NCBI GenBank assembly: GCA_964016885.1
Contig: OZ024742.1
Span: 193,378,001 to 193,442,000 of the forward strand
Source of the DNA: Eledone cirrhosa
Lineage: Eukaryota
Reading direction: 5' to 3'
DNA: 64,000 nt
Part shown: positions 5,330 through 58,290 of the stretch, in pieces
How the letters are laid out: every line of letters begins with the position of its first letter
How positions within the stretch are numbered: position 1 is the stretch's first letter
Position numbers and translations under genes: made by a program
Notes under the pieces: model-generated
Seen by the model: the letters and a program-made list of their open reading frames with translations, nothing else
The model's database searches: none
Told to the model about the DNA's origin: nothing

Positions 5330-5365
<36 letters not shown>

Positions 5366-6142
5366 TTTTGTGCATGAAATTTGGGCAGCGTTCAGAGAGT
5401 TTGTTCAGTGTCGGGCTCTCGGCAAATAGTATTCCCTAGCTCTCTGAGATACAATGGTCGCAACACTTGTGTCCTCCCATGTATGAGCGCGCTCTCTGGA
5501 GTACTTTCCATTTGAGCGTGAAAGGGGTGGAGTCCATCTTGAGGTCCCAGAAATAGGAGGCGAGTGTTGTCCTATCCTGTGTCGTGCGCTGTTAGTGAGA
5601 ATTTCGAATGAAAGAATTAACACGCGACAAGTGACTAGCAGGAGGGTAGCATAGAAGACTATGGTCTATGGCAACGTGCTACTAGAATTTAGTCCGATTC
5701 TGCCACATGATTACTCTCACCATAAGGGAGTATATTACATATTAACTGAAGAAGTATACATATCTCTACACGAGTAGAGATACAAGTGACTAAGTAAAGA
5801 TTTTTCTCTTAACTTGTTGGCTTTTTCCATATATATATATTTGGGGATGTTGCCAATATTTCCAAAGAAAGAAACATGTGCACCACCTTATTTACATTTT
5901 ATCTTTATCTTTATTGCTCGTTATTATTTCGTTTGCCAAAGTTGTTTCCTCTCTTAAACTTCTATTCCATTCTATCTTTGTTTTGTGAAAGAATTATTAA
6001 AATTATATGGTGCGTGTTACTTCTATTAGAAATATTAGCAGCATAAACATCCCCAAATATAACAATATCGGTTTCAACACAGGATTTCACATCAAAAATC
6101 TTGCAGAACAAATACATTAACGTCTATATATATATATATATT

Positions 6143-6335
6143 ATACAGAAATAACTTCTATAGGACTAAAACTGTTTTATTCAAAATAAATCACCTGGTA
6201 TTCCTGATCAATCTTTTTGAATGAAACAGATCTAGGCCGTAGAAGGCATTTCTATATTAAACGTGATGTTTACTCTCTGAAAATATATTGAGTACCTTAA
6301 TAACTCTGGTTACCCCCAATTCAACCCGTGATATA
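6143..6335 (+). mobile_element. Degenerate fold-back HHR element, family 2 (older copy of 24767-24959)
   Basis: Imperfect palindrome around 6200. Decayed HHR tattc-CTGATCA-atctttttgaat-GAAA-cagatctaggccg-TA-gaag. Tail ggttacccccaattcaacccg matches the reverse complement of 24767-24800. Confidence 0.7.
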
Positions 6336-6396
6336 CACACGCGAACACACACACAGACACACACACACATATATATATATATATAGAGAGAGAGAG

Positions 6397-7343
6397 AAGT
6401 AGAACACTGGAATGTAATATCCGTAGTGGTAGAGCACTCAGTTCATGGGACGAGTTTGGTAGAAGTTGTAACACAGCAGTTAGTTCACCATACCGAGAAC
6501 AATTGTTTCACCTTATGCGGATATTCAGCTCGGACTGGTCATGGTTATACGGAACAGGAAGAACAACTATATGAACGCGCACGCGCAGACATGGTCACTT
6601 CCCCCAAGCGATACCCAAACACGGGCGAAAGGTGTAACTGCGAAAGTCCGAAATAAAAAGTTCGAGTTGATTAGAAAATTAGAATGCTGTTGTTATACAA
6701 TCCGGAGCTTTGTAGTTATAAAAGAGTTGTTTGCAACGTGAGAAGATTTGATTTCTTGAATTTAGGCAATCGCTATTGCGTATCTCCTTAGAATTGTTAT
6801 CGTTTCTTCAATACACAGTTCACAAGACGGATTGTCCCTGCGTATGGCTTGGACTTAGTGTTGTCTTTCCATCAAATGGAGTAGTCTATACCTGAGTCTT
6901 TGAGGGACCATACGTAGCTCACGAGCTTCGTGGATGATCGTTTGTACGGGTATCTAAAGGTCGCCTGATGGTTGAGGAAGCGTTCCTTAAATAAGCCCTC
7001 CACCATACCCACATAGGATTTGACCTCCTGTGGTTAATTTGGTCGGCTGGAAGTGACCACAGCTGGAAACACCTCTTGCATAAATACAAAGCTCCGGATT
7101 GAATAACAACAACATTCTAATTTTCTAATCAACTCGAACATTTTATTCCGGACTTTCGCAGTTATCTTCCTTACACCTTTCGCCCGTGGTTTTGTATCGC
7201 TCGGGGAGAAGTGACAGTTTCTGCGCATGAGCGTTCGTACGGCTGTTCTTCCTGTTCCGAATAACCATGACCAGTCTAAGCTGAAGATCCGCATAAGGTA
7301 AAACAATTGTTCTCGGTGTGGTGAACTAACTGCTGTGTTACTA

Positions 7344-7346
<3 letters not shown>
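6397..7346 (-). mobile_element. Penelope-like element 3' end (GIY-YIG remnant + pLTR) with an inverted pLTR copy
   Basis: Minus strand about 7033-6735 reads KSYVGMVEGLFKERFLNHQATFRYPYKRSSTKLVSYVWSLKD..(frameshifts)..CELCIEE..CLNSRNQIFSRCK, a PLE GIY-YIG C-terminus. Arms 6463-6735 / 7063-7346 are inverted repeats. Confidence 0.85.
6493..6533 (-). ncRNA. Minimal type I hammerhead ribozyme, family 3 (mirror copy 7276-7316 on + strand)
   Basis: Consensus ccgag-CTGAAGA-tccgcataaggt-GAAA-caattg-TT-ctcgg. Stem I ccgag/ctcgg; palindromic AACAATTGTT. Each copy carries one different core mutation (CTGAATA here, GAAA>AAAA in the mirror). Confidence 0.78.
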
Positions 7347-7396
<50 letters not shown>

Positions 7397-7874
7397 GTGT
7401 GTGTGTGTATATATATGTATGTGCCTGTGTTTTATATGTGTGAATGTATGTGTATGTGTGGATGTGTATGTGCGGGTTAAATATAATTGCACTTCTCAGG
7501 GTACTATTAATTTTATTAATATGGGATGCGTTGAAGCCCTTGGAATTAGAGATTTGAAACTTACATCGCCGGTGGCAGTTTGTATATTGGCTCTGTCATC
7601 ATTTCTACAAAAGAAGAGCAATGACACCTCCAAATCAGTATCGAGCTCAAATTTAAATAATTGCTTTTACATTTTCCATCTGAAATGCATTGTTGCAAGT
7701 ATCAAGCTAATGTAGCTAATAGTATTAGATGTTAAAAATTAGTTTGAATATCTATATACACAAACGCCTGACAGCAGAACCAAATCCATATACATACTTG
7801 AATACATACATATAGACGTACACATTATGCCTCCACAAACGGACGTAGACCCTCTCCCATGTATGTATATATTA

Positions 7875-10364: not shown

Positions 10365-12618
10365 AATAAAATAAAATAACAGGAGGCTGGACTGGTGTAA
10401 ATCCTTTAAAGGTTTATTATACTATGATCATTTCAATGACCGGGTTCAATATGAATCCGGTGATATCATCAGGTATTGGAATATAAGAAAGGAATATGTA
10501 AACAAAACCATGGGTCCGAAAAATCAGAGACAGAGACAAAGAGGACGACTGACCAACTAGCTCCTCGGCCAGCCGCTCTCAAAGTGTTGGCAACTGAATC
10601 TACTAATGAATATCTGGTGAGGGGGCGAAGGCTTATAATGCACTACCACCACTCCGTCAAAGAAGAAGGGGGAGAAAGAAAGAAAGGGAGAAAGAAGTGT
10701 AGTGTAAGGGTCATACTACATTCATGGTAGAAAATGCCGCGAAAAATGCTACCCAAAGCATCTATAATGGGTGTCTGTATGGTCTAATGTGTGAACCGAA
10801 GATTGGAACGTTAAACTTATGTTGCGAGTTATAGGATGAAATTAAATTAAATTAAAAATATTAAATTGCAAAATGATAAATTGAAAAATAAAGGTAGCGA
10901 GATTGAAGATTATATTAATAAAAGGAATTCCAAATTTGTCTGATTTACTCGTTTTATTTACAGTCCTTTAAAATTATAATGATATTATAATGAAATAGTA
11001 TGGTACAATATTAAATGTTAAGTGTTCATTGAACAAGTACTTTCATGTTTTCTCAATCTTCAGGTTGATATTCAGTGGTGACAGTCAAGTTTGCAATTTT
11101 CAACTGTAATGAGATGGGTAAATTCTGTGCCTTATATACAGTAAAAAGGGCCTACAGAATGCTAAGTTTTGCAAACTGTATTTTGACCAATCGGTGTGTA
11201 GTTTCACTAGATTACTAAAGCTGAATGGTTTAAACGTCATGGTTGGTTGAGCATGTCAAACGACTTCTATTTGGCCCTATCCAAAGCATCAATTGTTTTG
11301 CTATTTTTCGAAACGATGAAAATAGCATTTTCTTTGGTTTTTATAAAAATGTTCAGTATTCATCACCATCAACACCACTTTTATTATTATTATTATTATT
11401 GTTGTTGTTGTTAGTACTGGTAGTCGACATGTTCGTAGGCGTAGTCATAGTAGGAGTAATACCCCTAAGCATTATTATTGTTCATTTAGCTTGGGTTGGA
11501 ATTTATCAATAAAATTATTTAAAAATATTTAATTTTTCTCTTGATTTCATTTGGGCTGTGTAATTTGTAGAATGGGAATAATATAAATATTTTCTGACCA
11601 CATATTACTAGATGGTTACTCAGGGGTATCTGACGGATATTTGGGTCTCTAATTTGATTTCGTTGCACCCGTGCAAGTTCCGATAGAGCATTGACCGACA
11701 TATAGTTCTTCACAATTCGGGCATTTAATGCAGTAAATTAGATTCCTGCTTTTGCAGTTCATATTTGCATTTGGAAATATTTTTCCAGTTTTTGTGTTCA
11801 TATATTTACCAGTGTGTATGAATTGACATGTTCCACATCGACTATCATTGCATTTAGATACAGTGAATGATTGGTCTTTGTTGTTAAGGTCAAACTTTGC
11901 CTTTGTTAGTAATTGCTTCAACTTTTTCAGCTGTCTTTTATTAAGAGTCAAAGATCGGTCTGTGATTAAACCTTTTAATTCATTACTTTGAGCAATGATC
12001 GTTAGGTTTGCTTTGGTAGTGTTGAAGATATTCTGGTGAGATGGGTTGCGTGTCATTATAAATGGTATGACCAGTTCTTCGTTTCTTCTTCCTTGGGTTG
12101 TCCTAAGTTGTATAGGTATTTTTATAGCCCGCTGTATGCCATTTTCTGTAAGTAGAGATGGGTATTTTTGTTTGAGCAAACATTCTCTCAGTTCTGTTAG
12201 GCGTTTGTCCCTGGTATTCGTATCTTCTACAATGGTACAAATTCTTCTGGCTAGGCAGTATGGGATGTTACGTTTTGTATGAGGTGGATGGCACGACTTA
12301 AACTTCAGATATTGATGGGTGACTGTGACTTTATAGTATATATCCGTGGTAATTGTGGTATCGTTTTTGATTACCATTATATCTAGGAATGATAATTTGG
12401 TACTAATCATCTCTTTTATGAATTGGAGAGATGGGTGTATGTTATTCAGGAGGATATTAAACTCACCCAGAGTATCTAGAGATTCTGTTCAGATGATGAA
12501 ACAGTCGTCAAGGTATCTGTTCCAAGACTTTTTAGTGTACTTTTTAAATTCAGTGCTATATTTTTCCTCTATTTCTAGGTAGAATTGTTGTTCTAAGTAT
12601 CGTATTACAGAGTTCGAA
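10365..12618 (-). mobile_element. 5'-truncated Penelope-like element: RT C-terminus, Cys linker, GIY-YIG, long 3' region with HHR
   Basis: [11 protein letters not shown] at about 12525-12495. ORF 12410..11649 has SFLDI, TDIYYK..THQYL..SCHPPHTKRNIPY, CNDSRCGTC and NLIYCIKCPNCEELYVGQ. Both ends abut (TA)n. Confidence 0.92.
10419..10476 (-). ncRNA. Type I hammerhead ribozyme at the 3' end of the PLE
   Basis: atac-CTGATGA-tatc accggattca tat tgaacccggt catt-GAAA-tgatca-TA-gtat. Stem I atac/gtat; palindromic ATGATCAT. Confidence 0.8.
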
Positions 12619-12716: not shown

Positions 12717-12770
<54 letters not shown>

Positions 12771-12902
12771 TAGATAGATATATATGCATATATATATATG
12801 TATATATATTTATGTATATATATGTATATACCTATATATGTATATATATATATACATATATATATGTATATATATATATATACTTATAAATATATATATA
12901 TA

Positions 12903-14680
12903 TACTATAAATATAGAGTTATAAACTCAAACAGTCCTTTACAATTAAATAGCTCAAAGAAAGAAATATTTCTGAGCCGTGGAATACAAGTTAATATAAA
13001 TTAATATATATGATAAACACTAATACAATTATATATGTGTTTGTATTGTAAATGACCAAGTTAGCTAGATTGAAAAATATTAATTTTATTAATACAGTTT
13101 TCCTGTCTCGATTTAAAATAATAAATCAATAAAAACAAACCCATATTGGCAATAGCCGTGGTACTTGGACAAATTTAAATTTCAAAATCCAAACCTGTTC
13201 CGTAGATAAGTTTAAACTTCAAAATCCAAATAAGTTTCGATAATTGAAAAAGTGAAAAAATACCATCTTCAGTTCTCATCAGCAAGTACCCAGAAAATTG
13301 GTGTTTCACCTCAAAATATTTAAGAAGACTGATCGACGCACATGGTTTCTCAGTGTCTAGCTTCCGCATACTCGTGCTGCTAGAAATAACAGCCGTTTTT
13401 ATGGGACTAAAATTAGCTCAACAAAAAAGGAGCCGTAATACTATAAATATAGAGTTATAAACTCAAACAGTCCTTTACAATTAAATAGCTCAAAGAAAGA
13501 AATATTTCTGAGCCGTGAAATACAAGTTAATATAAATTAATATATATGATAAACACTAATACAATTATATAAGTGTTTGTATCGTAAATGACCAAGTTAG
13601 CTAGATTGAAAAATACTAATTGTATTAATACAGTTTGCCTGTCTCGATTTGAAATAATAAATCAATAAAAACAAACCCATATTGGCAATAGCCGTGGTAC
13701 TTGGACAAATTTAAATTTCAAAATCCAAACCTGTTCCGTAGATAAGTTTAAACTTCAAAATCCAAATAAGTTTCGATATTGAAAAAGTGAAAAAATACCA
13801 TCTTCAGTTCTCATCAGCAAGTACACAGCAAATTGGTATGTTTCACCTCCAAATATTTAAGAAGACTGATCGACACACATGGTTTCTCAGTGTCTATCTT
13901 CCGCGTACTCGTGCTGCTAGAAATAACAGCCGTTTTTATGGGACTAAAATTAGCTCAACAAAAAAGGAGCCGTAATACTATAAATATAGAGTTATAAACT
14001 CAAACAGTCCTTTACAATTAAATAGCTCAAAGAAAGAAATATTTCTGAGCCGTGAAATACAAGTTAATATAAATTAATATATATGATAAACACTAATACA
14101 ATTATATAAGTGTTTGTATTGTAAATGACCAAGTTAGCTAGATTGAAAAATACTAATTGTATTAATACAGTTTGCCTGTCTCGATTTAAAATAATAAATC
14201 AATAAAAACAAACCCATATTGGCAATAGCCGTGGTACTTGGACAAATTTAAATTTTAAAATCCAAACCTGTTCCGTAGATAAGTTTAAACTTCAAAATCC
14301 AAATAAGTTCCGATAATTGAAAAAGTGAAAAAATACCATCTTCGGTTCTCATAAGGAAGTACCCAGAAAATTGGGTACTTGCTGATGAGAACTGAAGACA
14401 GTATTTTTTCACTTTTTCAATTATCGGAACTTATTTGGATTTTGAAGTTTAAACTTATCTACGGAACAGGTTTGGATTTTGAAATTTAAATTTGTCCAAG
14501 TACCACGGCTATTGCCAATATGGGTTTGTTTTTATTGATTTATTATTTTAAATCGAGACAGGCAAACTGTATTAATACAATTAGTATTTTTCAATCTAAC
14601 TAACTTGGTCATTTACAATACAAAGACTTATATAATTGTATTAGTGTTTATCATATATATTAATTCATATTAACTTGTAT
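12903..14680 (-). mobile_element. Tandem array of an ~537-bp HHR-containing unit (2.7 copies) capped by an inverted ~305-bp copy; retrozyme-like
   Basis: Units start at 12903, 13439 and 13976. The third turns at about 14372 into an inverted copy (14373-14680). No ORF; both ends abut (TA)n. Confidence 0.9.
13160..13290 (-). ncRNA. Type I hammerhead ribozyme with expanded stem III (other copies ~13696-13825 -, 14233-14363 -, 14374-14504 +)
   Basis: ggtacttg-CTGATGA-g..(tgaaga/ttttca)..c-GAAA-c..~60 nt..g-TC-caagtacc. Perfect 8-bp stem I and a GUC cleavage triplet. Confidence 0.75.
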
Positions 14681-14797
14681 ATATGTATATATATATAGAC
14701 ACACACCCATATATATATATGTACATATATATAAATACATATATATACATATATATATATATATATACATAGATATATATGTGTGTGTGCGTGTCTC

Positions 14798-14881
<84 letters not shown>

Positions 14882-14909
14882 TGTGTTTATATATATATAT
14901 ATATATATA

Positions 14910-15153
14910 TTAGAAAGTGAGGTTTTTTTTACAAAATGAAAAATAACAAGTGAAAGTATAAAGAAAAAACGTTGAAATCGAAAATGCAACTGGAGTCTTA
15001 TTTTTTTAAATATATATATTTATTTGGTTCCTTTACTGGTTTCGCAGTTCTCTTGAAAAACAGAAGAACTGCGAAACCGGTAAAGGAACCAAATAAATAT
15101 ATATATTTTAAAAAAAAAAGATTCCAGTTGCATTTTCGATTTCATCTTTTTTT

Positions 15154-15406: not shown

Positions 15407-16778
15407 TATAAACAAATCGTAAAAATGGAAACCTTCAGTAGAAAATGCTGGAGAAATTTTTTCAGTATAATATCGAAACATTTATTTATAAAGTGAGTAT
15501 TTCCGCATTTAATAGTGGTAACGGTTTCAGCATTATATGCTCTTCCAATGGCGGATTTGCAAAGTGCAGTTAAATCGCATATTGCCAATCTAATGAACAA
15601 CCTAATTTCAGAATTTTCCCCTCTACAAATTTAAAGACAATGCTTCCTACATCCAGCGCATTAGAAAGGAATCACACTTTATCACCAAATACGAACTCCT
15701 TCTAAATTCATCCACGTTGGATTACACTACAGCTGGCACACTCTACAATTACCACCCTGGACAAATTAACCCTTTGGCAATGTATCCTTCAAGATTCCAG
15801 CAACTTTTGACAACTATATAATGTAGATGAAGCAACCACATAGAAACACACAAATTAGCTAATTCTTCAGCACTTTCACGAAGATAATCGAATAAATAGG
15901 TGCATTAAGGTGTCAAACTAAATGCTTCACACTATGTACGGCCCAGTACGTTTTAAGTTCGAATCCTTCTTTTTCAGCCTTCATGGGTCTATAATATTGT
16001 TGGTAGTTTCACGCAATAGAATCGATGAAATCCCCATTCTTCATTTCCCTGAGCCTGGGAGTTTGTGCTGAAGATATAATTAGTACTTCAGTAATTCTGA
16101 ATCTTTTTCGTGGCAAAATGATGAAGTCTACGTTGACTATTTCTGAGATAAAACAATTTAAGAATGCCAGCATTTCAGACAGGAATACCAAGATAGGTAA
16201 TTTTAGAAACAATTACTTCCCCGGTCGACTCTAAGGTCATTCAACCATTCAATCCAATCATACGTCTAACTTGCCTTTGTAGCCATTATTGTAAGTTATT
16301 ATCACGACAACAGATTGCTACCACACCTATCCTCTGTCCTCTTCTTCTCCCCCTCACCCATTTTCCCTCCCCTCCTCCTTCCCCCTTTCCTTTTCCCATT
16401 TCCCCCCCCACTACTATCTGTCGAAGCTAGCAGTCAGAACCAAACATTTAAAACTAATACCACCTCTGTTACCCAACTAACAGAGAATGAAGGATAACCT
16501 CGGACAGAAACATGAACTTTCCTCACTAAATGTGTATGTAAAAACTAATAATTGTTCGTCCCCTTTTTATTATTATTCGTATAAATATGCAACTTAACTG
16601 CACTTTGCAAATCCACCGTTGAAAAAGCATATAATGTTGAAACCGGTACCACTATTAAATACGGAAATACCCACTTTATATATAAATGTTTTGATGTTAT
16701 ACTGAAAAAATCCCCCCAGAAGTTTCTACTGAATTTTTTCCATTTTACTATTTGTTTATAGTGTCACTTTTCTACAAT

Positions 16779-16780
<2 letters not shown>
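15407..16780 (+). mobile_element. Penelope-like element 3' fragment with an inverted terminal copy (15407-15582 / 16584-16760)
   Basis: 15613-15708 translates IFPLYKFKDNASYIQRIRKESHFITKYELLLN, matching the EN C-terminus of ORF 61520..61113. Arms hold a decayed HHR (agcat ata atgtt-GAAA-ccgg-TA). Confidence 0.8.

Positions 16781-23304: not shown

Positions 23305-23309
<5 letters not shown>
23115..23309. mobile_element. Fold-back element, family 4 (arms 23194-23250 / 23253-23309 plus left tail), 3' half of an HHR
   Basis: 57-bp arms, 2-nt loop, between (TA)n tracts. c-GAAA-cggc tggagctct gccg-TC, with GAGCTC palindrome in the loop. Confidence 0.82.
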
Positions 23310-23361
<52 letters not shown>

Positions 23362-23366
<5 letters not shown>

Positions 23367-23731
23367 GGAGGTGTTTTTGATTGTATCACAATAAAGCAAT
23401 GCAAATATCGGATAAGTAGCACTCAAAAATTTATAGGACTGCAGTACAAATAATATAAGATCAAAAGATGGTTAAAAGAGTTCCAAGTATTTTATTATGC
23501 GCATTTCAAAAACAAATATCATCATGGGATGATATTTGCGTTCTCATCAGATACAATAGGGAGACATGATATGAAGCTTAAAAAACACTTGCGAGCATTG
23601 AAGTGTTTTTTAAGCTTCATATCATGTCTCCCTATTGTATCTGATGAGAACGCAAATATCATCCTATGATGATATTTGTTTTTGAAATGCGCATAATAAA
23701 ATACTTGGAACTCTTTTAACCATCTTTTGAT

Positions 23732-23738
<7 letters not shown>
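23362..23738. mobile_element. Fold-back HHR element, family 5 (arms 23453-23590 / 23601-23738 plus left tail); tail-only copy at 58972-59050
   Basis: 138-bp near-perfect inverted repeat with a 10-nt loop; (TA)n on both sides. Confidence 0.88.
23636..23700 (+). ncRNA. Type I hammerhead ribozyme, family 5 (mirror about 23491-23555 on - strand)
   Basis: tgtat-CTGATGA-gaacgcaaatatcatc ctat gatgatatttgttttt-GAAA-tgcgca-TA-ataaa. Long stem II; palindromic ATGCGCAT. Confidence 0.82.
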
Positions 23739-23768
<30 letters not shown>

Positions 23769-23852
23769 GTATATATATATATGTGTTTGTGAGTGTGTGT
23801 GTGTATTTATATATATATATATATGTATGTATACATATATATGTGAATATAA

Positions 23853-23942
<90 letters not shown>

Positions 23943-24766: not shown

Positions 24767-24955
24767 CGTTATTCCGGGTTGAATCGGAGGTAACCACAGT
24801 AAGTAAGGTACACAATACATAGCAGAGTATAACAGTTTTAATATAGATGAGATTCTACAAGACTAGAACTGTTTCATTCATTAGAAATCATCAGGAATCA
24901 CACGATTCCTGATGATTTCTAATGAATGAAACAGTTCTAGTCCTGTAGAATCTCA

Positions 24956-24959
<4 letters not shown>
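24767..24959. mobile_element. Fold-back HHR element, family 2 (arms 24844-24899 / 24904-24959 plus left tail)
   Basis: 56-bp arms with a 4-nt loop (acac); bounded by (TA)n and (CT)n(TA)n. Confidence 0.88.
24904..24952 (+). ncRNA. Minimal type I hammerhead ribozyme, family 2 (mirror 24851-24899 on - strand)
   Basis: gattc-CTGATGA-tttctaatgaat-GAAA-cag ttctagtc ctg-TA-gaatc. Perfect stem I, cag/ctg stem III, GUA site. Confidence 0.85.
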
Positions 24960-25009
<50 letters not shown>

Positions 25010-25509: not shown

Positions 25510-26780
25510 ATGTTTTTGTGTGTGTTGCGCATGTGTTGCATGCGGGTGTCACTGTGTGTTTATATTTGTTTATTTATTTGTTTATTTACATGTTACTGGT
25601 TGGTTGTTTATTCTATGTGTTTGTGTGTGTTCGTTTTGAAAAGAACTAGAGAGACACATACAACACTTCATCCACCGTATACAGTTCTCTGGTTACAATC
25701 AGAGTGATAAAATCAGAGTATATAGAGGAGCCAGAACCAAATGGGTAAAAATGTTAAATAATTATACAAATGAGACCTGCCCCTTGTATAGGAGCAAATT
25801 TTGGAATATAATAGAAAGAACTAGGAATAAGGTTAATAGAATAAACTCATGGTATGATTGCAATAAATACCAAAGTGTAATGTTCAACGATACAACCCCT
25901 ATAGGTGAATTAGCGAACAAATGTAGAAGGGCCCTAGATAAACATAAACTCAATATTAAGATAGTAGAAAGGCCAGTTACCTCCATAAAAACACTTATTA
26001 GCAATACATACCCTTTTCAAAGACCACCCTGTATATATAAGAAATGTATAATCTGTAAACTAAGCCCCCATACTATCTGTAAAACTAGAAATGTAGTATA
26101 TAGCATACGATGAACTGAAGGACAATGTAGAGATAAGAATATAGTGTACATATGTGAGACAGCTCGTAGTATAGCGGAACGGATAAATGAACACTGGCGA
26201 GAGCTTCAAGATAGTAAAGAATCATCTGTACTCCACCAACATGGTAAAATAGAACATAAGGGTAAATTAGAGAACAGAGAAATAAAAATAGAATCTACAC
26301 ACAGAAAATACGCAATGTTTAGACAAATCACAGAGGCAATAAACATAAATGAACACCAACCAAAATTAAATAGAAAACATGAATGGAACAGCAACATCAC
26401 AACTCACCATTAAGGACAAAATGAAAACACACACACACAGATAGAACTAACAACCAACCAGTAACATGTAAATAAACAAATAAATAAACAAATATAAACA
26501 CACACAGACACCCGGATGTAACACATGCGCAAACTAAGCACACAGCACACACAAAAACAAGATGGCGTAGGACAGAACAAAGGAGAGGCACAAAAACAAA
26601 GAAATTAATCCCCAGAACTTTGACAATATATGAACAATCGTCTGGTTGTGGAACTAACCAACCAATCGGAAATTTATAAATTCCTAAATTTATAAATTTA
26701 ATTCATAAAAAATAGAAGTGATACAGCTGGTGCGTGTGTTTCTTATTGACAACATGACCCTCCCAAAGTATAACAATATA
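25510..26780 (+). mobile_element. Penelope-like element 3' fragment (GIY-YIG) with inverted terminal copy (25510-25640 / 26417-26560)
   Basis: ORFs 25751..26113 and 26144..26413: CKTRNVVYSI, YICETARSIAERINEH, SVLHQH, RQITEAININEHQPKLN. Confidence 0.85.
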
Positions 26781-27528: not shown

Positions 27529-29746
27529 GTGTGTGTATGTGTGTGTGTGTGTGTGCTTGTGTTTTGATGTATATATCCCAGAATGGTCATTAAATAAAAG
27601 TAAAAATGTTATATTGTAAAATATAAAAGAAAAAAATCAAAAACAGAAAAACTGAAGACAGTTTATGAGCTATTTTTGATGAAAAGGCTCTAAACAAGAA
27701 TATAGCATCATAAGGAGACAATCTGTCACAATATCGGACATAGAACTACTTTACGATTTGCTGAATTGAGATAAACCCATGGAATTCTCGCCGCTGTTGA
27801 CATTTATTATTTACCAGTACTGAAATCTTCTCAATTTCAGGGAGCAAGCAAGGACATTTACAACAATAACACTGATGATGATGATGATGATGATGATGAC
27901 GGTGGTTATGGTCGTCGTCGTTTTGGTGGTGACGGTGGTGATGATGGTGATGGTGGTGATGTTGATGGTGATGGTGATGGTGATGGTGATGAATAATGAG
28001 CCTCCGCCTATTTCAACAATGTGTATTCCACTGCTCAATCAATTTAACGTCTCCCTGGTAAATTATCGTATGTGTAAGCAGCAGAATATGCCAAAGACTT
28101 GTATTCTTAACGTTATACTCAAGCAAAATCACCGAGTTTACCAGCGCTTGGCCCCTGTCAGTACTTTAACAGTGCCTCCCCTTTTGTATTGGTTTGAACT
28201 ATATTTACCCCCCAAGGATAACTTCCCTTTCCCTAAGGCCATCTCGTTAGAGGTTGCTTTGTTTTAATTATAGGTGACCTATCCTATCTTATAAGCATTT
28301 ATCAGTGACAACATGGTGGATTTGAACTCAGAATGTACAAAACTAGAACAGATACGGCTACCATTTCCGGTAATTCACTGCTTATTGCACAGAAAGGAGA
28401 ATGAGAAAATAAACAGAGGAAGGGTTTACTCACGGATCACAGAGATCCAGAACAAATTCCGCAAAGTGTTTAATACCTGTTCTAAAAGATTTGGTATTTG
28501 CTACCTTTGTATGTTATTTGTCTATCAGAGGGAATGCTTTGTAGTAATATTTCCCCTTCTCTGCGTTCTTTAAGTTCAACCCCTGTTGTGGTCAACATTG
28601 CCTTTCAACCTTTCGAGGTCGAAAAAACGATTCTAGTCCAGAACTGGGGTTGATTCTTAATTTATTTCTCTACCCCCCCCCCCCCCTCTCCATCTCCTCC
28701 CACCCCCTCTCTCTCTCTCTCTCTCTCTGGCTCTCCTCTGATATAAATAGACGGTTTGCAAAGGTGAAGGGCGAATGCGCACTACAAGTTCTAAATTACC
28801 CACGTCACGACGTATCTCACGAATGCGTCTCTACACCTGAACTTACGGCTCCATACACACTCATTGATATATACTTATATACTTATTATTTAGCCCCTTG
28901 TCTTATGGAAATTTATTTTTAAAATGTTTATTTTACAATATTTCAAGATGAAAGTGCTTGTCAAATAATAGGAAAACAGTTTTCTGAATTATTACGTAAC
29001 CACAAAATATATTAAACAAAAACATGATTGAATTATGCTTTAAAAATATTTGGTTAGATAAACATTTAAAATTGTGTCTCAGATCCTATTGTGTTACTTA
29101 ATATCGTTTTGAACGTGTTGACAGTTCTAATCAGTTCAATTCAACATCTTGTCTAAAGAGGTACGAAGATAAAATACTGCAAAATTTCAAAATATGTTTT
29201 TACTCACTTTACTGCCGATAAAACAACATCGACAACACGACGAAACATTAAAAATATATCACTATTCTGAATCTCCTCAAAGAATATTGATTAAAACAAA
29301 GCTTATGTAAAAGCAATCTTATAAAGCTCGGAGCTAAAAATATCTGTATTAAGTAGCCATCATTTAAACTATATTTTCGTAAAAATGTATTTAACATAAA
29401 ACAACACTTAGATTAAAAGAGAATATTAGAAACTTGCTTACTTAACAGTTTTCTTTTTCTTCTGGCAGTGTAATTTTTTCGTTTATCACAGAATTTTTGT
29501 TTCAACTAGAGTGTAAAAGTATAGGTTTTTCGATTCTTCATGTTTAAAATTTTTCCTAAGTATTTGAGTGGAAAGCGAAACTTTTGCAACAATGAATTTT
29601 AAAAATATTCATATTGCAAAAAATATGTAGACTATCATTTAATTAACATTTTGCAAAATTTGTTTCGCACTGAAATCATTGTGTGCGTGTGTTTCCACAA
29701 ACCTGATTACCCTGACTATTGAAGCATGATGATCACGAGGTCTTAG

Positions 29747-29817
<71 letters not shown>

Positions 29818-29826
29818 ATATATTAT

Positions 29827-31780
29827 TTAGGAAAAAGAACAAAGGGAAGCACGTCAGCTCTGCAGACCCAAAAGTGTGTGCAGCCAGAGAACACCTGAAA
29901 GCTGCCAGGGACCAATTCTATGCTGATCCTACGGAGGAGAGGATGGAGACTGTGGAGGTGATGAGGGAAGAGCTCTGTACCGCTTACACTGAGGTCAGAG
30001 AGGAGGCACTGATAGAGAAGATCAGAAGTGTGGAGAGAGCGGTTGACAGATCTGGATGTAAGGAGAGCTGGATGATCATCAACGAGATCACAGGGAGGAA
30101 GAAAAGGTGTTCGAGTCAGATCCAGGGAACGGGGCCCGAGGATAGGAAGAGGAAATGGCTAGACCATTTTAGGACCCTACTAGGAGAGCCACCCTCCACA
30201 GCCCAGAGCACTGGGGAGATCAGGCGGCTGTTTGAGGAACTGGATGTTGAGACAGAGCCCTTCACCAGAGAGGAGCTTCAGAGAGCCAAGAAGAAGATCA
30301 AGGAGGGCAAGGCTCATGGAGAAGATGGAGTAGCATCAGAGGTGATGAAGTGGTGTGATTTTGATGATATCATCCTGGGGTTCTGTAACGGGGCACTGGA
30401 GAAGGGAGTTGCCCCGAATCAGTGGAGGATCAGTAACATCGTCCCAGTGCCAAAGAAGGGAGATCTCTCTAACACCAACAACTACCGGGGGATCTCACTG
30501 ACGTCACTTGTGGCAAAGACCCTCAACAGGATGATTCTTAACAGGATCCAGCCTGAGATGGAGAAGAAGCTCAGGGACAACCAGAACGGCTTCAGAGAGG
30601 GTAGATCAACCACCAGTCACATCCTGATGCTGAGGAGGATATTAGAGGGAGCTAGAGCAAAGTGCCTTCCTGCGGTCATGGTTTTCATTGACTTTAGGAA
30701 GGCCTTTGATTCTGTGGACCGTTACTGCCTGATGAAGATCTTACAGGCTTATGGAATCCCCAAGAGGATAGTGGACCTGATATCACTGCTCTACACCAAC
30801 ACCAAAGCCCAAGTCATTACACCTGATGGGATGACAGAGTTCTTTGAGATACTGGCTGGAGTGCTCCAGGGAGATACATTGGCTCCCTACCTTTTTATCA
30901 TCGTAGTGGACTATTGTATGCGCCTTGCACTGGAGAAACACCAGGACTCTGGCTTTACTGTAGCACCGGCTCAGAGCAGGAGAGTTGGGGCGAAAAAGGT
31001 ATCGGATGCTGAATTTGCCGACGACATAGTTTTGGTGACAAATACAGTGAAGGAGGCAGAGGATTTGATGCGGGAGGTTGAGACTGTGTCGATGAGTGTG
31101 GGGCTGAGAATGAATGAGACTAAAACAAAATATCTGGTAGAGAATGTTGAGAAGCCAGAGGGGATCACTAATGTAGGCGGGAAGCCGCTGGAATTGGTTG
31201 AGGACTTCCTGTATTTGGGAGCAAAGATTGGGAATACGGAAGATGATGTGGTTGAGAGGAAGAGCAAGGCCTGGGCAGCGTGCCACAGCTTGAGATCGGT
31301 GTGGAAGTCGGACCTTCGTAGAGACCTGAAAGTCCGCCTCTTCATTGCTGTAGTGGAGTCTGTGCTGCTGTATGGGTCTGAGACTTGGACACTGACCAAG
31401 AGACTCACTCAGATGGTGGATGGGTGCTACACGAGAATGCTGAGGATGGCTCTGAACATTAATCAGTATACACTGAGGATGAAAAACTCAGAGCTGTATG
31501 GGAGCCTCCCAAAAGTCAGCTCAAAAGTGACACAGAGGAGACTGAGGTTGGCTGGACATGCTCACCGACATCCAGAGTTGACATTGCACTCCGTGCTCCT
31601 TTGGGAGCCCCTACATGGACACACTGGAAGAGGAAGACCAAGGTTAACATATGTTGATGCCCTAAGGACAGACACTGGTCTGTTGGAGACGCAGGACATG
31701 GCAGCGATAATGAGGGACAGAGACCGCTGGAGAGAACTCGTCCATGGATCTCGGGAATTTTACCCGCCTTAGATAGATAG
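29827..31780 (+). mobile_element. Young 5'-truncated RTE-clade LINE with (TAGA)n tail and probable TSD ATATATTATT
   Basis: Uninterrupted RT ORF. ATATATTATT at 29817-29826 and 31781-31790. Much higher GC than flanks. Confidence 0.88.
29874..31772 (+). CDS. Non-LTR reverse transcriptase (RTE clade), N-terminally truncated, no APE domain
   Basis: PVPKKGDLSNTNNYRGISL, QNGFREGRST, FIDFRKAFDSV, GVLQGDTLAPYLF, FADDIVL, FLYLG, VLLYGSETW, GRGRP. Confidence 0.9.
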   Translation: MCAAREHLKAARDQFYADPTEERMETVEVMREELCTAYTEVREEALIEKIRSVERAVDRSGCKESWMIINEITGRKKRCSSQIQGTGPEDRKRKWLDHFRTLLGEPPSTAQSTGEIRRLFEELDVETEPFTREELQRAKKKIKEGKAHGEDGVASEVMKWCDFDDIILGFCNGALEKGVAPNQWRISNIVPVPKKGDLSNTNNYRGISLTSLVAKTLNRMILNRIQPEMEKKLRDNQNGFREGRSTTSHILMLRRILEGARAKCLPAVMVFIDFRKAFDSVDRYCLMKILQAYGIPKRIVDLISLLYTNTKAQVITPDGMTEFFEILAGVLQGDTLAPYLFIIVVDYCMRLALEKHQDSGFTVAPAQSRRVGAKKVSDAEFADDIVLVTNTVKEAEDLMREVETVSMSVGLRMNETKTKYLVENVEKPEGITNVGGKPLELVEDFLYLGAKIGNTEDDVVERKSKAWAACHSLRSVWKSDLRRDLKVRLFIAVVESVLLYGSETWTLTKRLTQMVDGCYTRMLRMALNINQYTLRMKNSELYGSLPKVSSKVTQRRLRLAGHAHRHPELTLHSVLLWEPLHGHTGRGRPRLTYVDALRTDTGLLETQDMAAIMRDRDRWRELVHGSREFYPP

Positions 31781-31784
31781 ATAT

Positions 31785-31960
31785 ATTATTGAAAATATTA
31801 AGAAATGGATAGATTCACATAATCAAAATATATATTTAATTACATATATTTCGGAAGTACTGTGTTGTTTTTTCAGTACGTCCTCATCAGATAAAATACA
31901 TAAATTGATGTATGACATACCTCAACTGTGCTGATGGTTCAATTCCAGTCTTGGCAGTAA
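31785..31960 (-). ncRNA. HHR-bearing pLTR-type arm, family 6 (HHR ~31836-31895; homolog 51480-51632 on + strand, HHR ~51517-51580)
   Basis: tttat-CTGATGA-gga cgtactg..cagtac ttcc-GAAA-tatat. The 51.5-kb copy reads tttgt-CTGATGA-ggac..cagtaccttt-GAAA-tatatata; downstream tattttgattatg is shared. Confidence 0.7.
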
Positions 31961-32149
31961 TTTATTACAACAAAACTCAATATTTATATACCACAAGTAA
32001 AAGTGTGACAAACTAAATATGATAGAGAGGGATAATTAGCGAGATATAATTATTAGGAGTGTGTGAGTAGGAGAAAGTATAGAATATGTAAATAAATAAA
32101 TAAATAAACACATAAGTATATAAAAGTATTACTCTATCTTCAATAGACA

Positions 32150-32850
32150 CACAATTAAACTTTCGTACTCAACAACCATGAATATGGCTCAAAATATTGC
32201 TAAAATTAATAGCAAAATTCTTAATTCAAACCAACATATAATCAACGACAATAACAATAGTAATAATAATAATACAATAGTTATTGAGAATAACTATAAC
32301 AATAATTTAAACACTTATTGTAGAACTCCTACACATAATAACAATGATAATATGAACAGTGTGGATTATAGAAATAGCACGAAATTGAACTGTAAATGTA
32401 AAAGGAAATCTGAATGCCTTTACAAAATAACTGCCTTGATAAGAATTTAGTTTATAAATGTACCATCAAAACAAATAATGATATTACTTATAACTACGTA
32501 GGTGCAACTTCATTGAACTTTAAACTTAGATTTTCCAATCATAAACATTATTTTTCTAATCCAGATAAAACATTGTCTACAATTAATATGGTCTTTAAAA
32601 GAGAAAAATATGAAATACTGAATTTCTTGGATTAAACTTAGAAACTCAGAATCCTATCGGAACCATTCCATTTCACCTAACTGCAATCTTTGTAATTTTG
32701 AGACTCTATTAATAATTGCTAATTATGGTAATTTAATTAATAAAAAAAGTGAATTATTTTCAAATTGCCTCCATAAAGCTACAAACACATTTCAAACATC
32801 ATATACATTTAGGAAAAAACATTGTCTGAGTGAGAAAAGATATTGACTTT
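32150..32850 (+). mobile_element. Penelope-like (Neptune-type) GIY-YIG fragment
   Basis: CKCKRKSEC/PLQNNCLDKNLVYKCTI..NYVGATSLNFKLRFSNHKHYF..CNLCNFE..LINKKSELFSNCLH across frameshifts. Confidence 0.85.
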
Positions 32851-32859
32851 TATTAATAA

Positions 32860-34259
32860 CTAGCAGTAAAGCCCGGCGTTGCTCGGGGTCGCTCAGTAGC
32901 TGTGTTAAAGTTACAATGTTAAGTTTCTTTTTTGGCTTAAAAACTGTAGTGTCTACTGTGCAGACTTGCATGTGGTGTTTTTGATTAATATTCCCTCAAC
33001 CAACAATATGCCTTATGAAGTTAAGAAAACATAACGATAACCCGAATGTTATAACAAAAGAGGAAATATTTGCTTGTTTTACGTAGTCTTTAAATAGACT
33101 TTTTTTCAAGTAAAAATTTTGTTTTAAAAGGCTTTTAAATGGAAATGAAGCAAAACGGAAGCTTAGTGTTCGAACTGATGAATTTTGCAGGTCAAAATTT
33201 TGCTGGCTCGACAACTGTTCGTGTATTGTGCTAATGTCATTTTAAACGCTGAGAAAGCCAGCGTAATTTTTTTAATTTTTGCACGCAGAAAATGTAAACA
33301 GAACGTAAGACGCTCAATGTAAACAGAACAAAGGGAAATAACTCGTCACTTACGCTCAAAAATCGATACATTAGATTCGATTTCGTCACATAGGGTGGGT
33401 CAATTTGAAATTTTTTTTTCCGATGTCTTCGCTAGGGCTGTACAAGTATAGCAATTTCGTAGTACAATGTACAAGTATAGCAATTTCGGTGCAATTCCGT
33501 CAGAGATTCTAAGAGGAGATGTGTGCCAAAAATCGATAGACAGACAGACAACCACAGCTTTATATATATAGATGACATAATCAAAAACAAGAACTTATTT
33601 GAACATTTATTTGACCGATGGTACCGCCGGACCTTCATCTATAAGTGTAGCAATTTCACCGAAATTTGAACGTACGGTTTAAGAGGAGATGTGTGCCGAA
33701 GGTTTTAGTAGACAGACAGACAACCTCAGTTTTATATATATAGATGACATAATCAAAAACAAGAACTTATTTGAAAATGTATTTGACCGATGGTTCCGCC
33801 GGACCTTCATCTATAAGTGTAGCAATTTCACCGAAATTTGAACGTACGGTTTAAGAGATGTGTGGCGAAGGTTTTAGTAGACAGACAGACAACCTCAGTT
33901 TTATATATATAGATGACATAATAAAAAACAAGAACTTATTTAAAAATTTATTTTACCGATGGTTCCGCCGGACCTTCATCTATAAGTGTAGCAATTTCAC
34001 CGAAATTTGAACGTACGGTTTAAGAGGAGATGTGTGCCGAAGGTTTTAGTAGACAGACAGACAACCTCAGTTTTATATATATATAGATGACATAATCAAA
34101 AACAAGAACTTATTTGAAAATTTATTTTACCGATGGTTCCGCCGGACCTTCATCTATAAGTGTAGCAATTTCACCGAAATTTGAACGTACGGTTTAAGAG
34201 GAGATGTGTGCCGAAGGTTTTAGTAGACAGACAGACAACCTCAGTTTTATATATATAGA
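32860..34259 (-). mobile_element. Non-autonomous Helitron with four extra tandem ~172-bp 5'-end modules
   Basis: Minus strand starts A|TCTATATATATAAAACTGAGGTTGTCTGTCTGTC and ends CCCGAGCAACGCCGGG hairpin..CTAG|T. Canonical TC/CTAG ends, A|T target, no TSD. Confidence 0.88.
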
Positions 34260-34264
34260 TTATT

Positions 34265-34562
34265 GTTTTTATTAGTATTATGTAAAATGTTTTACCTCAC
34301 CATATATTTATATATTCGGAAATGTTCGTTGTCCGACCATATCTTAAAGAAGGGAAAAATTGTGAAATTTCCCTTTCCGTATGTTGAGAAGTGTTCACTG
34401 CATGTTGTGTTTCTGACAGAGGGGTCTCTAGCTTGTTGTTTATGTACTCTAACTCTGTCATGAAGACCCGATTCGGTTTCACCGATATAGTATTCTTTAC
34501 ATTGTGGGCAGGTTGCACAGTAAACGAAGATTTTTGTTTTGCAATTCATGTTTGCATTTACT
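34265..34562 (-). mobile_element. Penelope-like GIY-YIG fragment
   Basis: NANMNCKTKIFVYCATCPQCKEYYIGETESGLHDRVRVHKQQ..CSEHFS..FTIFPFFK. Confidence 0.88.
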
Positions 34563-36064: not shown

Positions 36065-39000
36065 TCATTCTTAAGCCACGCAATGCTCACATTAAGGAAC
36101 CACTCATGATAATAACAATTTAAAAAAAACAACAAAAAGAAAACCCCGTGACCAAGAAATACCAGGATGGCGGCCTGCGGGGAATAGGCGTGTCCCTAGG
36201 GGAGAACGACCCCTCTAGTCTTGGTTGACACTCGTTCTAGAAGTGGTAACACGAAATGATTACCCCTTGGCGGATAAGGATAAAACGCGACAAAATAAAG
36301 TAAATGTCTAATGATAAAATCTCATACCGGATCGGCCGTCTCCCGGGTAAAAAAGGGCCGCGTCCCTCAGAGAGGAACCAGACTGGGGTCGAAAAATCAG
36401 CTAATGGTTCAAACCTTCCCATCACTTCGGAGCTGGAGACCTCCCATAACCGGAATACTCCTACTGTTGGCCCTCCATGCTCACCACCAAGAAATCCAAA
36501 GAAAAAGAGAGGAAAATGGTCAAAAGAAGATAATAAAGAAGTCCATGAGGCTTTCTACACTGCCATATACTACCCATCAAATACATCGAATACAGAACAG
36601 ACATATATCAACTGAAACATCCCGAAAACAGAGACTATATTGACAGTAACAAACTAGCCAATATACGAAGAAATATTGTAAGAAAAAAGGTACTAACTGA
36701 TATAGAAATTGATCAGATCAAGCTATTAGCACAAAGTCAGCGAAGGGAAAATGAAACATGTGTCAGTGAAAACGAGGTAAACTGTAACACTTCAAATCCC
36801 AGAGTTGGGGCGGAATCACTGGCAACAGAACAAATTAAAGAAAGGATCGAAAAAGTGGAGGGAGTGCATGCTCAGGATGAAACTCCAAATGAAAATAATG
36901 AGATCGTAAATGATAAAGAAATCAATGAGAATGAACTTGCCAACTTGAAGGATGAAATTATGATCGAATGGTTGAAAATGAAAGAATCTGACATGGGGCA
37001 ATGAGACACCCTCCCTAAGATCCAGAACACCAAACAGAACCAAAAGATACACAAGACTAACATAATTCTCAAAAACATTATCATCACAAACAAACTAAAC
37101 TTTACTGATTTAAATTATCTCTATTATGCATCGGCTAAAGTCACCACTCACTTATGTGGAGTGAAGATGAAAAAACAAAGGAATTCATACAAGAAATCTA
37201 CTTCGCAAGAGAACATCAATCGACAAATAAACCTTCTCCGATCTGACATAGAAATTTTAACAAACTATAAAGTAGGTTAACATGTTAAACAAACTAAACT
37301 TAGAAAATTGAAAAAAAATACAGTATAAAATCAACAAGTGACATAGACATGCTGATAGAAATAATCAAACAAAAAGTGTCGGCCAAAGCTGCTCGTATAA
37401 GGCGCTTTGAAAAACGATCTAGATTCTATAAGGACAATAATATGTTCAAAAACAAACAAAGAAACTTCTACAGAAAAATTGGTAAGTCAACAATAACTGC
37501 TAAATCAATACCACCCAAGGAGGAAGTGCAAGATTGCTGGGAAAACATCTGGGCCGAAGAAAAAGTTCATAACATACATGCCCCATGGATAGACAGACAA
37601 ATGAAAGATACAGCTCACCTTGAGGAACAAATATGGGAAAATATAACAGTTGAACAGTTGCGCTTGGCTCTAAGAAAAACCAGCAAATGGAAATCCCCAG
37701 GAAAAGACAAAATACAAAACTTTTGGATAAATGCCTTCACCAAGTCTCATGAGCTGTTAGCCCAACTTTACAATGAAATACATAAGGAGCCAGAAAAGAT
37801 ACCTTCATGGCTAGTTAACGGCATTACATTCCTGCTTCCGAAGAATGATGAGACAAACAATCCCAAAAATTACAGAACGATAACTTGCTTGACCACAATG
37901 TATAAAATTTTAACATCAGTCCTAACTGAATACACATATGACCACCTGATAACAAATGACCTATTTCCCATTGAGCAGAAAGGGTGTAAACGAGGCTCAT
38001 ATGGCTGTAAGGATCAGATTCTGGTTAACAAAATGATACTGGAAGATTGTCATAATAGACACAAACATCTATCGATTGCTTGGATAGATTATAAAAAAGC
38101 ATTCGATAGTTTGCCACACAGTTGGATTGAAAAATGTTTAGAGATTTTCAAAATATCCCCCGTTGTCAGGAGGTTTTTGTCATTCAGTATGAAGACATGG
38201 AAAACGACACTCCTTTTGAATAGTGAAACAACATCACTGGAAGCTGGAGAAGTTAATATTAATTGTGGAATTTTTGAGGGTGACTCTTTATCACCGCTTT
38301 TATTCTGCATCGCAATTATACCATTAAGTAAAATGCTCAATGAAACAAAACATGGATATAAAGTCTATGACAAAACCATTAATCACCTGTTCTACACGGA
38401 TGACCTGAAACTATTTGCAAAAAATGATGAACAATTGCTATTATCCACTGTGAAGCAGTTCAGTGATGACATTAAAATGGAGTTTGGACTAGATACATGC
38501 GCCAAAGCAACGTTCACCAGAGGAAAACTGCTGAAGAGTTCAGACATTAATCTTGATCGGGGAAACGTGATAAGAGAACTTGATCAAGAAAAAACTTACA
38601 AATATGTAGGTGTTTGTGAAGGAGACGGAATCAAGCACTCGACAATGAGGGAAAGGATAAGGAAGGAATGTTACCGCAGAGTAAGAGCAATCTTAAGAAC
38701 GGAATCGAATGCAAGGAATAGGATCGATGCCATAAACAAGCTTGCCATACCAGTAGTAACCTACAGTTACAATGTCATCAAATGGTCAAGCACAATTCTT
38801 AACCATGCACAGAATGCATCACCCTAAGGCAGATATAGATAGAATATATCTCCCTAGGAAAGAAGGAGGACGTGGGTTAATCCAGTTAGACATTGCGTTG
38901 AAAACTGCAACAATTGGATTATCTACATATCTAAGGGGATCACATGATTGGATGATCAAACTCGTTTTGAAACACGAAATCATCAAAAGATCATATTCCA

Positions 39001-40077
39001 TTACAAAAGATGCACAAAGATACAGTAATGGACTACAAATTTCAGAAGTCCCATTTACTGCTGAAATGGAAAACACAGAAAAAGCAAAGCAGGTAAAAGT
39101 AACTGCAAAGAAAGAACTGCTACAGAACTGCTACAGAAACTGGAAAGAACTGCTACAAGAAAAGCCTCTGTATGAAAAATACCCAGAGCGAGCTAACAAT
39201 CCTGATGTTGACAAGACTTTAACCCATCAGTGGTTGGCATCCTCTGGACTGAAATCGGAGACTGAAGGACTGATTATATCGGCACAAGATCAGTGTCTGC
39301 CAACAAAACATTACCAAGCCAACATAATAAAAAAAGGGTGCAGCCAATTATGGCGAGTATGCAAAAAACAACCAGAGACCATTGACCATATAATTTCAAT
39401 GTGCAGTCCTATAGCTCCAACCGAATACCTAAACAGGCATGACAGAGCTGCACAATACATACATTGGATAATGTGTAAGCATTTTGACCTGCCCCATCAA
39501 AAGAATTGGTGGGAGCATCAACCACCTCCCATACTTGAAAAAGATCACATCTCAATCTTGTGGAACTTTAGCATCCAGACAGACCGAAAAATAGATGCAA
39601 ACATACCTGATATAATATTAAAGACTTTCAAAAGAGGGTATGCCTGCTAATTGATATGTCTGTTCCAATAGACAAGAATGTATCTATAAAACATTTGAAA
39701 AATGGAGCAAGTATAAGGACCTGGAGATAGAAATTAGAAAAATGTGGAAATTGAGAACTAAAACAATACCAGTGGTTGTAGGCGCTCTGGGAATGATACC
39801 TAAGGGGTCTAATGATTACTTATCGCAAATCCCAGGAAACCCGCGTATAGGAGAAAAACAAAAGATAGTACTAATGGGAACTGCCCATATACTAAGGAAG
39901 ATTCTGTCAATATAAGTACATCACAAGTCTAAACACTAAAGATGCATGTGTGAATATGTATGTTCTTTCTTGAACATGGCGGACCTTGTTGTCTCTTGAG
40001 GTCACTGGTTGTGACTTGGTGATAACTCGTATGAACATAAAGCAAGATAAATGCAACTGTAATAATAATAATAATAG
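36065..40077 (+). mobile_element. Near full-length Dong/R4-clade LINE (RT + CCHC + restriction-like endonuclease), frameshifted
   Basis: N-terminal KKRGKWSKEDNK. RT ORF 37349..38827 (WIDYKKAFDS, GDSLSPLLF, FYTDDLKL). ORF 38772..39650 has RVCKKQPETIDHIISMC, RHD and PDII. Ends in (TAA)n at 40060-40077. Confidence 0.92.
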
Positions 40078-54527: not shown

Positions 54528-54563
54528 CCTTAACGTTTCGGACGCTATTCCTTCATCAGAAGA
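54528..54563 (-). ncRNA. Minimal type I hammerhead ribozyme, family 8 (within element 54440-54615)
   Basis: tctt-CTGATGA-a gga atagcg tcc-GAAA-cg-TT-aagg; palindromic AACGTT. Closely resembles 61097-61131. Confidence 0.8.

Positions 54564-58285: not shown

Positions 58286-58290
<5 letters not shown>
57978..58290 (+). mobile_element. Direct-repeat (partial tandem) derivative of PLE family 3, period ~266 bp
   Basis: attgttctcg.tatggtgaac.aactgttgtgttactac at about 57981 and 58247. Matches the reverse complement of 6397-6505 and ends at the same base as 7346 before (TA)n. Confidence 0.82.

Follow-up and report, generated by a model that had tools for sequence, protein, structure and literature searches.

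A fold-back in a (TA)-rich microsatellite of Eledone cirrhosa as the very probable remains of a 5′-truncated Hydra-clade Penelope-like retrotransposon

Architecture of the fold-back at 6397-7346

The window, by which we mean the whole 64-kb stretch of DNA that was analysed, is AT-rich, repeat-dense animal DNA in which the GC content is mostly 29-44% and dinucleotide runs make up 6%. One unusual feature is the density of fold-back arms. Local fold-back arms cover 10.6% of the 64 kb, or 8.9% without dinucleotide runs, a figure drawn from 18 alignments, some of them overlapping and not all demonstrably derived from Penelope-like elements (PLEs). Comparison of the window with itself detected a pair of inverted repeats at 6460-6735 and 7064-7349 with 86% identity (E 2e-92), and 246 of 276 bases match in the arm-to-arm alignment, which has 2 indels. 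The features of this locus are as follows.

6342-6396, no strand: compound (CA)n-(TA)n-(GA)n microsatellite, the target site at the tailed 3′ end (sequence and flank analysis)
6397-6459, minus strand: one-sided 3′ tail of 63 nt, absent from the other arm and found again in the copy at 57981-58089
6460-6735, minus strand: left arm, the 3′ end of the element itself, with the final 12 ORF codons, 3′ UTR and hammerhead
6487-6539, minus strand: degenerate small type I hammerhead of the left arm (own descriptor)
6697-7072, minus strand: GIY-YIG endonuclease remnant assigned to the Hydra clade, from the GIY strand to the end of the ORF (protein searches, tblastn)
6736-7063, minus strand: spacer (loop) of 328 nt between the arms, endonuclease-coding throughout
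7064-7072, no strand: inversion junction of 9 nt, a possible microhomology (tblastn homology starts at 7072, arm homology at 7064)
7064-7349, plus strand: right arm, an inverted, shorter 5′-truncated copy of the same 3′ end, without tail
7270-7322, plus strand: degenerate hammerhead of the right arm (own descriptor)
7346-7394, no strand: (TA)n run adjoining the tail-less end, target site (sequence and flank analysis)

The order of parts is nuclease, stop codon, 3′ UTR and hammerhead, with the RT absent from this copy. The nuclease remnant begins at the GIY strand, without a linker, and its last 12 codons lie inside both arms, the right arm retaining the stop codon at 7100-7102. The 9 nt at 7064-7072 double as the inner end of the inverted arm on the plus strand and as GIY-strand codons on the minus strand. 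An inverted 5′-truncated copy plus a tail at one end only is a trait of PLE insertions, and the description of the locus in an earlier note as a 5′-truncated PLE insertion with an inverted copy holds. There is no perfect palindrome, microsatellite or host DNA at the junction, and the 64-kb window contains no second copy of it. Within the microsatellite, a target-site duplication is unreadable. A motif shared by the arm end and the tail end was discarded as not significant (p 0.034 in 1 of 11 tests).

The two arms diverge by 10.9%, and from related fragments near 58 kb by 9-15%, as expected for old neutral copies; the differences between the arms comprise 14 transitions and 16 transversions, with 8 of the CpG type. 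The whole element folds as one long duplex of about -510 kcal/mol. Selection for an RNA hairpin is unsupported, as the substitutions show no bias toward keeping pairs, and the G.U-preserving ones have no strand bias (5 vs 9, p 0.42).

An endonuclease remnant in the loop

The earlier note had claimed that the spacer encodes a PLE endonuclease of the GIY-YIG type. In an exhaustive protein search, a 77-residue piece of the remnant matched 1539 cluster representatives at E ≤ 1e-3 (best 9.4e-16), bearing out this reading. Searching back with tblastn mapped 147 of the 150 matches listed (of the 1539) to the spacer, a partly circular result, while the same 150 listed proteins gave no match at E ≤ 1e-3 in the reversed window. 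Pfam and a word-indexed protein search returned nothing for the remnant. The wording of the claim, that the spacer is the C-terminus of the endonuclease, was right as to the protein but not as to its extent, since most of the nuclease core is present, from the GIY strand to the stop.

The reading frame is broken by two in-frame stops and then two frameshifts, and the longest stop-free run is 53 codons, which explains the absence of the remnant from a list of ORFs of at least 100 amino acids, as the earlier note had also said. The YVG, R, H, CxxC-E and N positions are recognisable. Two later frames outside the query match the CxxC-E and N..R..C segments of the profile with E-values of 7e-4 and 6e-4, obtained in a small search space, and the best match, P0002, has the same local wording in these two frames. 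The GIY and YIG strands enclose no cysteine, the second frame has a CxxC with an E after it, and there is no CCHH. After the conserved N, the left arm keeps the C of a CxH and the right arm keeps the H, neither having both, which would be consistent with decay of the CxH motif.

The hammerheads of the two arms

Each of the 86% identical inverted arms carries a type I hammerhead with one core mismatch, in agreement with the description of the locus as a hammerhead fold-back. The lesions are different ones, core position G8 being T (6523) in the left arm and G12 being A (7300) in the right arm, which also has two mismatches in stem I; the background at one mismatch is 0.062 per kb. In the left arm, stem I has 5 bp plus 4 bp past an internal loop, stem II has 2 bp over a U.U pair, stem III is palindromic, and the equivalent of the cleavage site falls after 6498. 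Neither hammerhead folds better than shuffles. Stem I of the left one appears in the MFE fold with a z of only -1.36, and 7270-7322 in the right arm gave no hammerhead fold (z 0.21).

Rfam reported no hammerhead in the whole window at the gathering score and none at E ≤ 10 in 6300-7450 or 6440-6600. Our own descriptor, which was built on the standard core, identified 10 perfect-core type I hammerheads in the window and none in any of 12 shuffles, indicating that the class is real here. Because the lesions differ between the arms, the parent element most likely had an intact core. Judged from its sequence, the fold-back is now without ribozyme function, as both cores are mutated and the long duplex of a read-through transcript would lock each hammerhead.

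Two further fragments of the arm family

Two other members of the arm family lie near 58 kb.

57981-58089, plus strand: 3′ end from hammerhead stem III onward, with tail, non-coding (92% over 109 nt)
58243-58290, plus strand: tail-less 3′ end (94% over 48 nt)

The first is identical to the 6397-7346 element at 98 of 108 positions across the arm end plus tail, and the second terminates at the same base before (TA)n as the tail-less right arm, so that both end points of the element, tailed and tail-less, recur. The fragments share one orientation and form no hairpin, and the coding-remnant search found no nuclease match in either. The possibility that they begin at the hammerhead cleavage site was ruled out, as the homologous sequence already begins some 6 and 10 nt upstream of that site. 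Their starting points, inside stem III of the hammerhead or just ahead of it, are separated by 266 nt. The tail-less fragment has an A at the equivalent of G12, like the tail-less right arm, which may be chance.

Clade assignment and published counterparts

Taken together, the 6397-7346 element is very probably a dead, 5′-truncated insertion of a Hydra-clade PLE retrotransposon in a (TA)-rich microsatellite. Craig et al. 2021 (PMC8557442) give as marks of this clade a C-terminal EN, a CxCX5C linker, RWK and DKT motifs in the RT, a length under 3 kb, the lack of CCHH, CxxC before the conserved E, CxH after N, a 3′ type I hammerhead and insertion in (TA)n. The element has in common with them the CxxC before the conserved E, the lack of CCHH and the target, with (TA)n adjoining 7346 and a compound run containing (TA)n adjoining 6397; of a CxH after N, its arms keep the C and the H separately. 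By eye, its residue pattern also agrees with the named Hydra rows in Fig. S7 of that paper.

The relatives of the remnant lead to the same clade. In the two best protein matches, the Hydra CxCx5C linker immediately precedes the region of similarity, and the linker is present in 45 of the 150 matches listed, many being fragments. The longer relatives are RT-EN proteins, with CxCx5C in 18 of 21, YRDD upstream in 10 and ADK[TS] in 4 of these relatives, most of which are incomplete at the N-terminus. Pfam returned nothing for six Hydra-type relatives except one irrelevant weak match, and a PDB search with the relative P0147 returned nothing.

The hammerhead layout, in which a U.U pair underlies a short stem II, stem III is palindromic and the cleavage site has a U, is shared by many Hydra hammerheads in File S2 of PMC8557442; the hammerhead is unlike that of Hydra-1_Obim, the sole cephalopod entry there. 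Compared with the Hydra-clade entries, the element is a decayed copy with neither RT nor linker, and its tail is 63 nt long. A short-string search of the sequences in PMC8557442 gave 0 matches for two arm strings and one peptide string.

The arrangement itself has precedents. A general PLE insertion consists of an inverted pLTR plus an optional tail (PMC3846280; PMC8557442, Fig. 2 legend), and the Repbase entry Penelope-13_HM, of the Hydra clade, has a 5′-truncated inverted copy with a hammerhead on each strand (PMC8557442). The element shares with general PLE insertions the head-to-head inverted 5′-truncated copy and the one-sided tail (PMC3846280), and its 9-nt overlap at the inverted junction has a counterpart of 15 bp in Pen2a_Av, according to the same paper. 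It differs in its tail, 63 nt against the 30-40 bp published for PLE tails, and in having no direct-repeat pLTR pair. The element is a new decayed Hydra-clade member in an arrangement already known. To call it a missing link, as the earlier note did, was an overstatement, given that the arrangement has been published for PLEs and for the Hydra clade itself, and that it is the only one of 17 tested fold-backs with both a nuclease remnant and a hammerhead.

Other coding loci in the window

The same arrangement had been proposed for 15407-16780 and 25510-26780, and at both loci the arms and the nuclease stand, but no hammerhead was found at up to 2 core mismatches. At 15407-16780, arms of 86% identity enclose a spacer of 1000 nt, in which a single plus-strand segment, 15615-15710, matches a nuclease, namely that of the 61113 ORF of this window (E 2e-5), the remainder giving no match; by eye, the arms hold a core-like remnant without stem I. 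At 25510-26780, where 119 of 143 arm bases match, there is a clear nuclease together with a thumb, 44% identical to P0152, a protein that itself matches Pfam GIY-YIG. By their sequence matches, the endonuclease remnants of these two loci are of other clades than the Hydra-type remnant at 6697-7072. An assignment of the 25640 remnant to Naiad was dropped, Naiad nucleases being N-terminal, and two of its motif strings had no match in the PMC8557442 supplement among the rows as listed there, the long ones being shortened.

Hammerheads had further been said to follow PLE ORFs at 10419 and 61097. The one at 10419-10476 has a perfect core, but it is not the first after the ORF, as a nearer hammerhead intervenes at 11032-11066. 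The latter is a perfect-core minimal hammerhead on the minus strand, which the 11649 PLE remnant precedes by about 400 nt. At 61097 the claim fails, for the motif does not pass the descriptor and is a degenerate homologue (78% over 83 nt) of an intact hammerhead at 54528-54563. Further Hydra-type nuclease remnants, outside the list of ORFs of at least 100 amino acids, were observed at 5334-5597 (minus strand) and 32094-32858 (plus strand), and a PLE nuclease remnant at 34292-34561 (minus strand), which has relatives in the 11649 and 61113 ORFs, starts at a microsatellite tract. By their motifs, the 11649, 34292 and 61113 remnants are presumably Neptune-type.

Spacer-less hairpins and their tails

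A coding remnant was found in 3 of the 17 fold-backs searched, and a hammerhead at no more than 1 core mismatch in 6 of the 18 scanned. Four of the hammerhead bearers are spacer-less palindromes, head-to-head like the 6397-7346 element.

23307-23883, 24845-24958, 50908-51267 and 58422-58902: spacer-less hairpins with outward hammerheads in both arms

Three of these four have tails of 64-82 nt, longer than the published 30-40 bp. In 11 fold-backs, picked because they were apparently tailed, the tails measured 20, 25, 49, 60, 63, 64, 78, 79, 80, 82 and 225 nt. Of 17 inverted-repeat rows, 12 abut a microsatellite on one side and have a second one no more than 100 nt away on the opposite side, compared with 5.4% of random positions; the nominal significance of this excess is overstated because two of the 12 rows are one locus and the alignments tend to run into self-complementary (TA)n.

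No sequence is shared between the spacer-less hairpins and the arms and 3′ regions of the three coding fold-backs. The tie that the earlier note drew between non-coding hairpins and PLE insertions therefore survives in outline, through the outward hammerheads and microsatellite flanks, but not as shared sequence. Likewise, its continuum from coding to non-coding forms is one of architecture (head-to-head copies, microsatellite target, one-sided tail) rather than of demonstrated descent. The best candidate in the window for a family link between coding element and hairpin may be the set 31777-31942, 51471-51640 and 50908-51349. Its first member, an inverted hammerhead arm upstream of the Hydra remnant at 32094-32858, has 81% identity to 51471-51640, a solo copy, and weak similarity to the 50908 hairpin (score 64, against a maximum of 47 in 300 shuffles). 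No sense partner for this arm was found in the window, and its link to the 32094-32858 ORF is for that reason a candidate only.

Immediately left of the 6397-7346 element and in the same microsatellite cluster, a palindrome at 6143-6257 (element 6143-6335) has a 78-nt tail and decayed hammerhead-like cores, and is 71% like an element at 24775-24989. At 12728-14910, a single unit containing words that resemble the hammerhead core is repeated at 96-97% identity in both orientations as a compound array, which gave no nuclease match.

How the inverted pair may have formed

The element consists of two 5′-truncated copies, one longer and one shorter, standing head-to-head in a (TA)-rich target and ending at two reusable 3′ ends. 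Among mechanisms, our tentative first choice is a reaction with two cDNAs. The element's protein would nick both strands of an AT-rich target, and two cDNAs would be primed at neighbouring internal start sites, one of which includes the tail and the other not; both would stop early and then be joined at a short microhomology. The longer copy occupies the minus strand between 7072 and 6397 and comprises the nuclease core, the hammerhead-bearing 3′ UTR and the 63-nt tail; the shorter, inverted copy lies on the plus strand (7064 to 7346) and has the last codons and a hammerhead-bearing 3′ UTR but no tail. In this model the loop would be the length difference between the two cDNAs, and spacer-less hairpins would arise when both stop at about the same place.

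We infer this route from the overlap at 7064-7072, possibly a junction microhomology, and from the behaviour of PLE protein in vitro (PMC11167929). In that study, purified protein cleaves and extends both strands, initiates at two internal sites bounding the tail without need of hammerhead cleavage, and is predicted to be a dimer. In the literature covered, which included few subscription papers, no paper was devoted to a two-cDNA model or to spacer-less PLE hammerhead palindromes. L1 twin priming also joins two primed cDNAs at a microhomology and yields a 5′ inversion, but what is inverted there comes from another stretch of the RNA, further upstream. In the 6397-7346 element, the same 3′ end supplies both copies, and the product is a fold-back.

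Self-priming is nearly as likely as the route with two cDNAs and is a serious possibility. One nucleic acid would fold back at a short complement and copy its own 3′ end as the inverted arm, the tail arising when the intermediate resolves. Such a step was proposed for head-to-head PLE inversions with palindromic junctions and is preferred in the Discussion of Arkhipova 2013 (PMC3846280). It accounts for near-perfect spacer-less palindromes such as 50908-51267 (97.8%), and the 9-nt overlap suits it as well as it suits two cDNAs. By itself, however, it leaves unexplained why the inverted arm has a fixed stop short of the tail, reused at 58290, and the junction of the 6397-7346 element is without the perfect palindrome.

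It is improbable that the fold-back is a mobile non-autonomous unit that multiplies as one piece and carries the nuclease remnant along. According to PMC3846280, pLTRs are enough for DNA lying between them to be mobilised in trans, and the window does hold several copies of one unit containing a fold-back (12728-14910, up to 97%). Against this, the window has one copy of the 6397-7346 junction, and the other members of the arm family are separately truncated and in direct orientation.

There is also a slim chance that the spacer-less hammerhead hairpins are independent retrozymes, which the 6397-7346 element merely resembles. None of the 14 other fold-backs has a nuclease or RT match, and the hairpins share no sequence with the three coding ones. 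However, according to PMC7229834 and 10.64898/2026.07.22.740005, animal non-LTR retrozymes are non-coding tandem direct repeats, whereas the hairpins are head-to-head, have one-sided tails and lie in microsatellites, and the 50908 hairpin is weakly homologous to an inverted hammerhead arm 150 nt upstream of the Hydra remnant at 32094-32858. The element itself has a type I hammerhead like retrozymes, as characterised there, but is an inverted pair with a coding loop and two mutated cores, and was rejected as a non-LTR retrozyme. The alternative posed by the earlier note, that families with no coding parent would be independent retrozymes, is too simple, as retrozymes are reported, in 10.64898/2026.07.22.740005, to be non-autonomous derivatives of PLE pLTRs, tandem rather than hairpin.

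A MITE or other long-TIR DNA transposon with a captured piece of a PLE, or a pair of unrelated insertions that entered one microsatellite in opposite directions, is scarcely credible despite the long inverted arms and the clustering of insertions in microsatellites here (the separate fold-back 6143-6257 being adjacent), because the arms are formed by the 3′ end of the PLE itself and run on from the nuclease frame, the ends are asymmetric (63-nt tail), and no microsatellite or host DNA separates the copies at the junction.

Implications

By itself, 6397-7346 matters little, as one more decayed Hydra-clade PLE copy in a published arrangement. For annotation, such hairpins are to be classed as PLE remnants, not as MITEs, retrozymes or microRNA precursors. 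The fold-backs of the window, with loops of 0 to 1000 nt and measurable tails, form a natural dataset for how PLEs make inverted ends and tails, and if they are equally dense genome-wide, they would bear on the sources of dsRNA for editing and silencing. Porath et al. 2017 reported that octopus, for which repeats were not annotated, has an exceptional potential for dsRNA, and that in lizard Penelope is among the heavily edited repeats, and a PLE origin of non-coding hammerhead repeats has been argued, in a 2026 preprint (10.64898/2026.07.22.740005), for tandem retrozymes.

A broader and rather unlikely proposition, offered as speculation, is that numerous PLE families from several clades integrate in this host chiefly as short fold-backs, head-to-head, through the two-cDNA reaction, that unusually long tails of 49-82 nt mark two RT start sites, and that the arms would make up about one tenth of repeat-rich DNA and be the main genomic source of long, near-perfect dsRNA and thereby of substrate for A-to-I hyper-editing. 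Both the fold-back density and the dsRNA reading come from one 64-kb window, which is possibly unrepresentative of the genome.

Other repeats in the window

The 3′ end of the Hydra remnant at 32094-32858 is interrupted by a non-autonomous insertion at 32860-34260 (minus strand), which we take to be Helitron-like from its end pattern. It holds a 172-nt unit repeated 4.4 times, and the reading of this tandem array (33510-34260) as a retrozyme array was ruled out, as it has no hammerhead. Long ORFs of non-LTR retrotransposons (Pfam RVT_1, zf-RVT) lie at 29733-31772, 37304-39650, 41473-43646 and 44187-48866, and the segment 41284-43427 has an inverted copy at 10-2126 with 81-83% identity.
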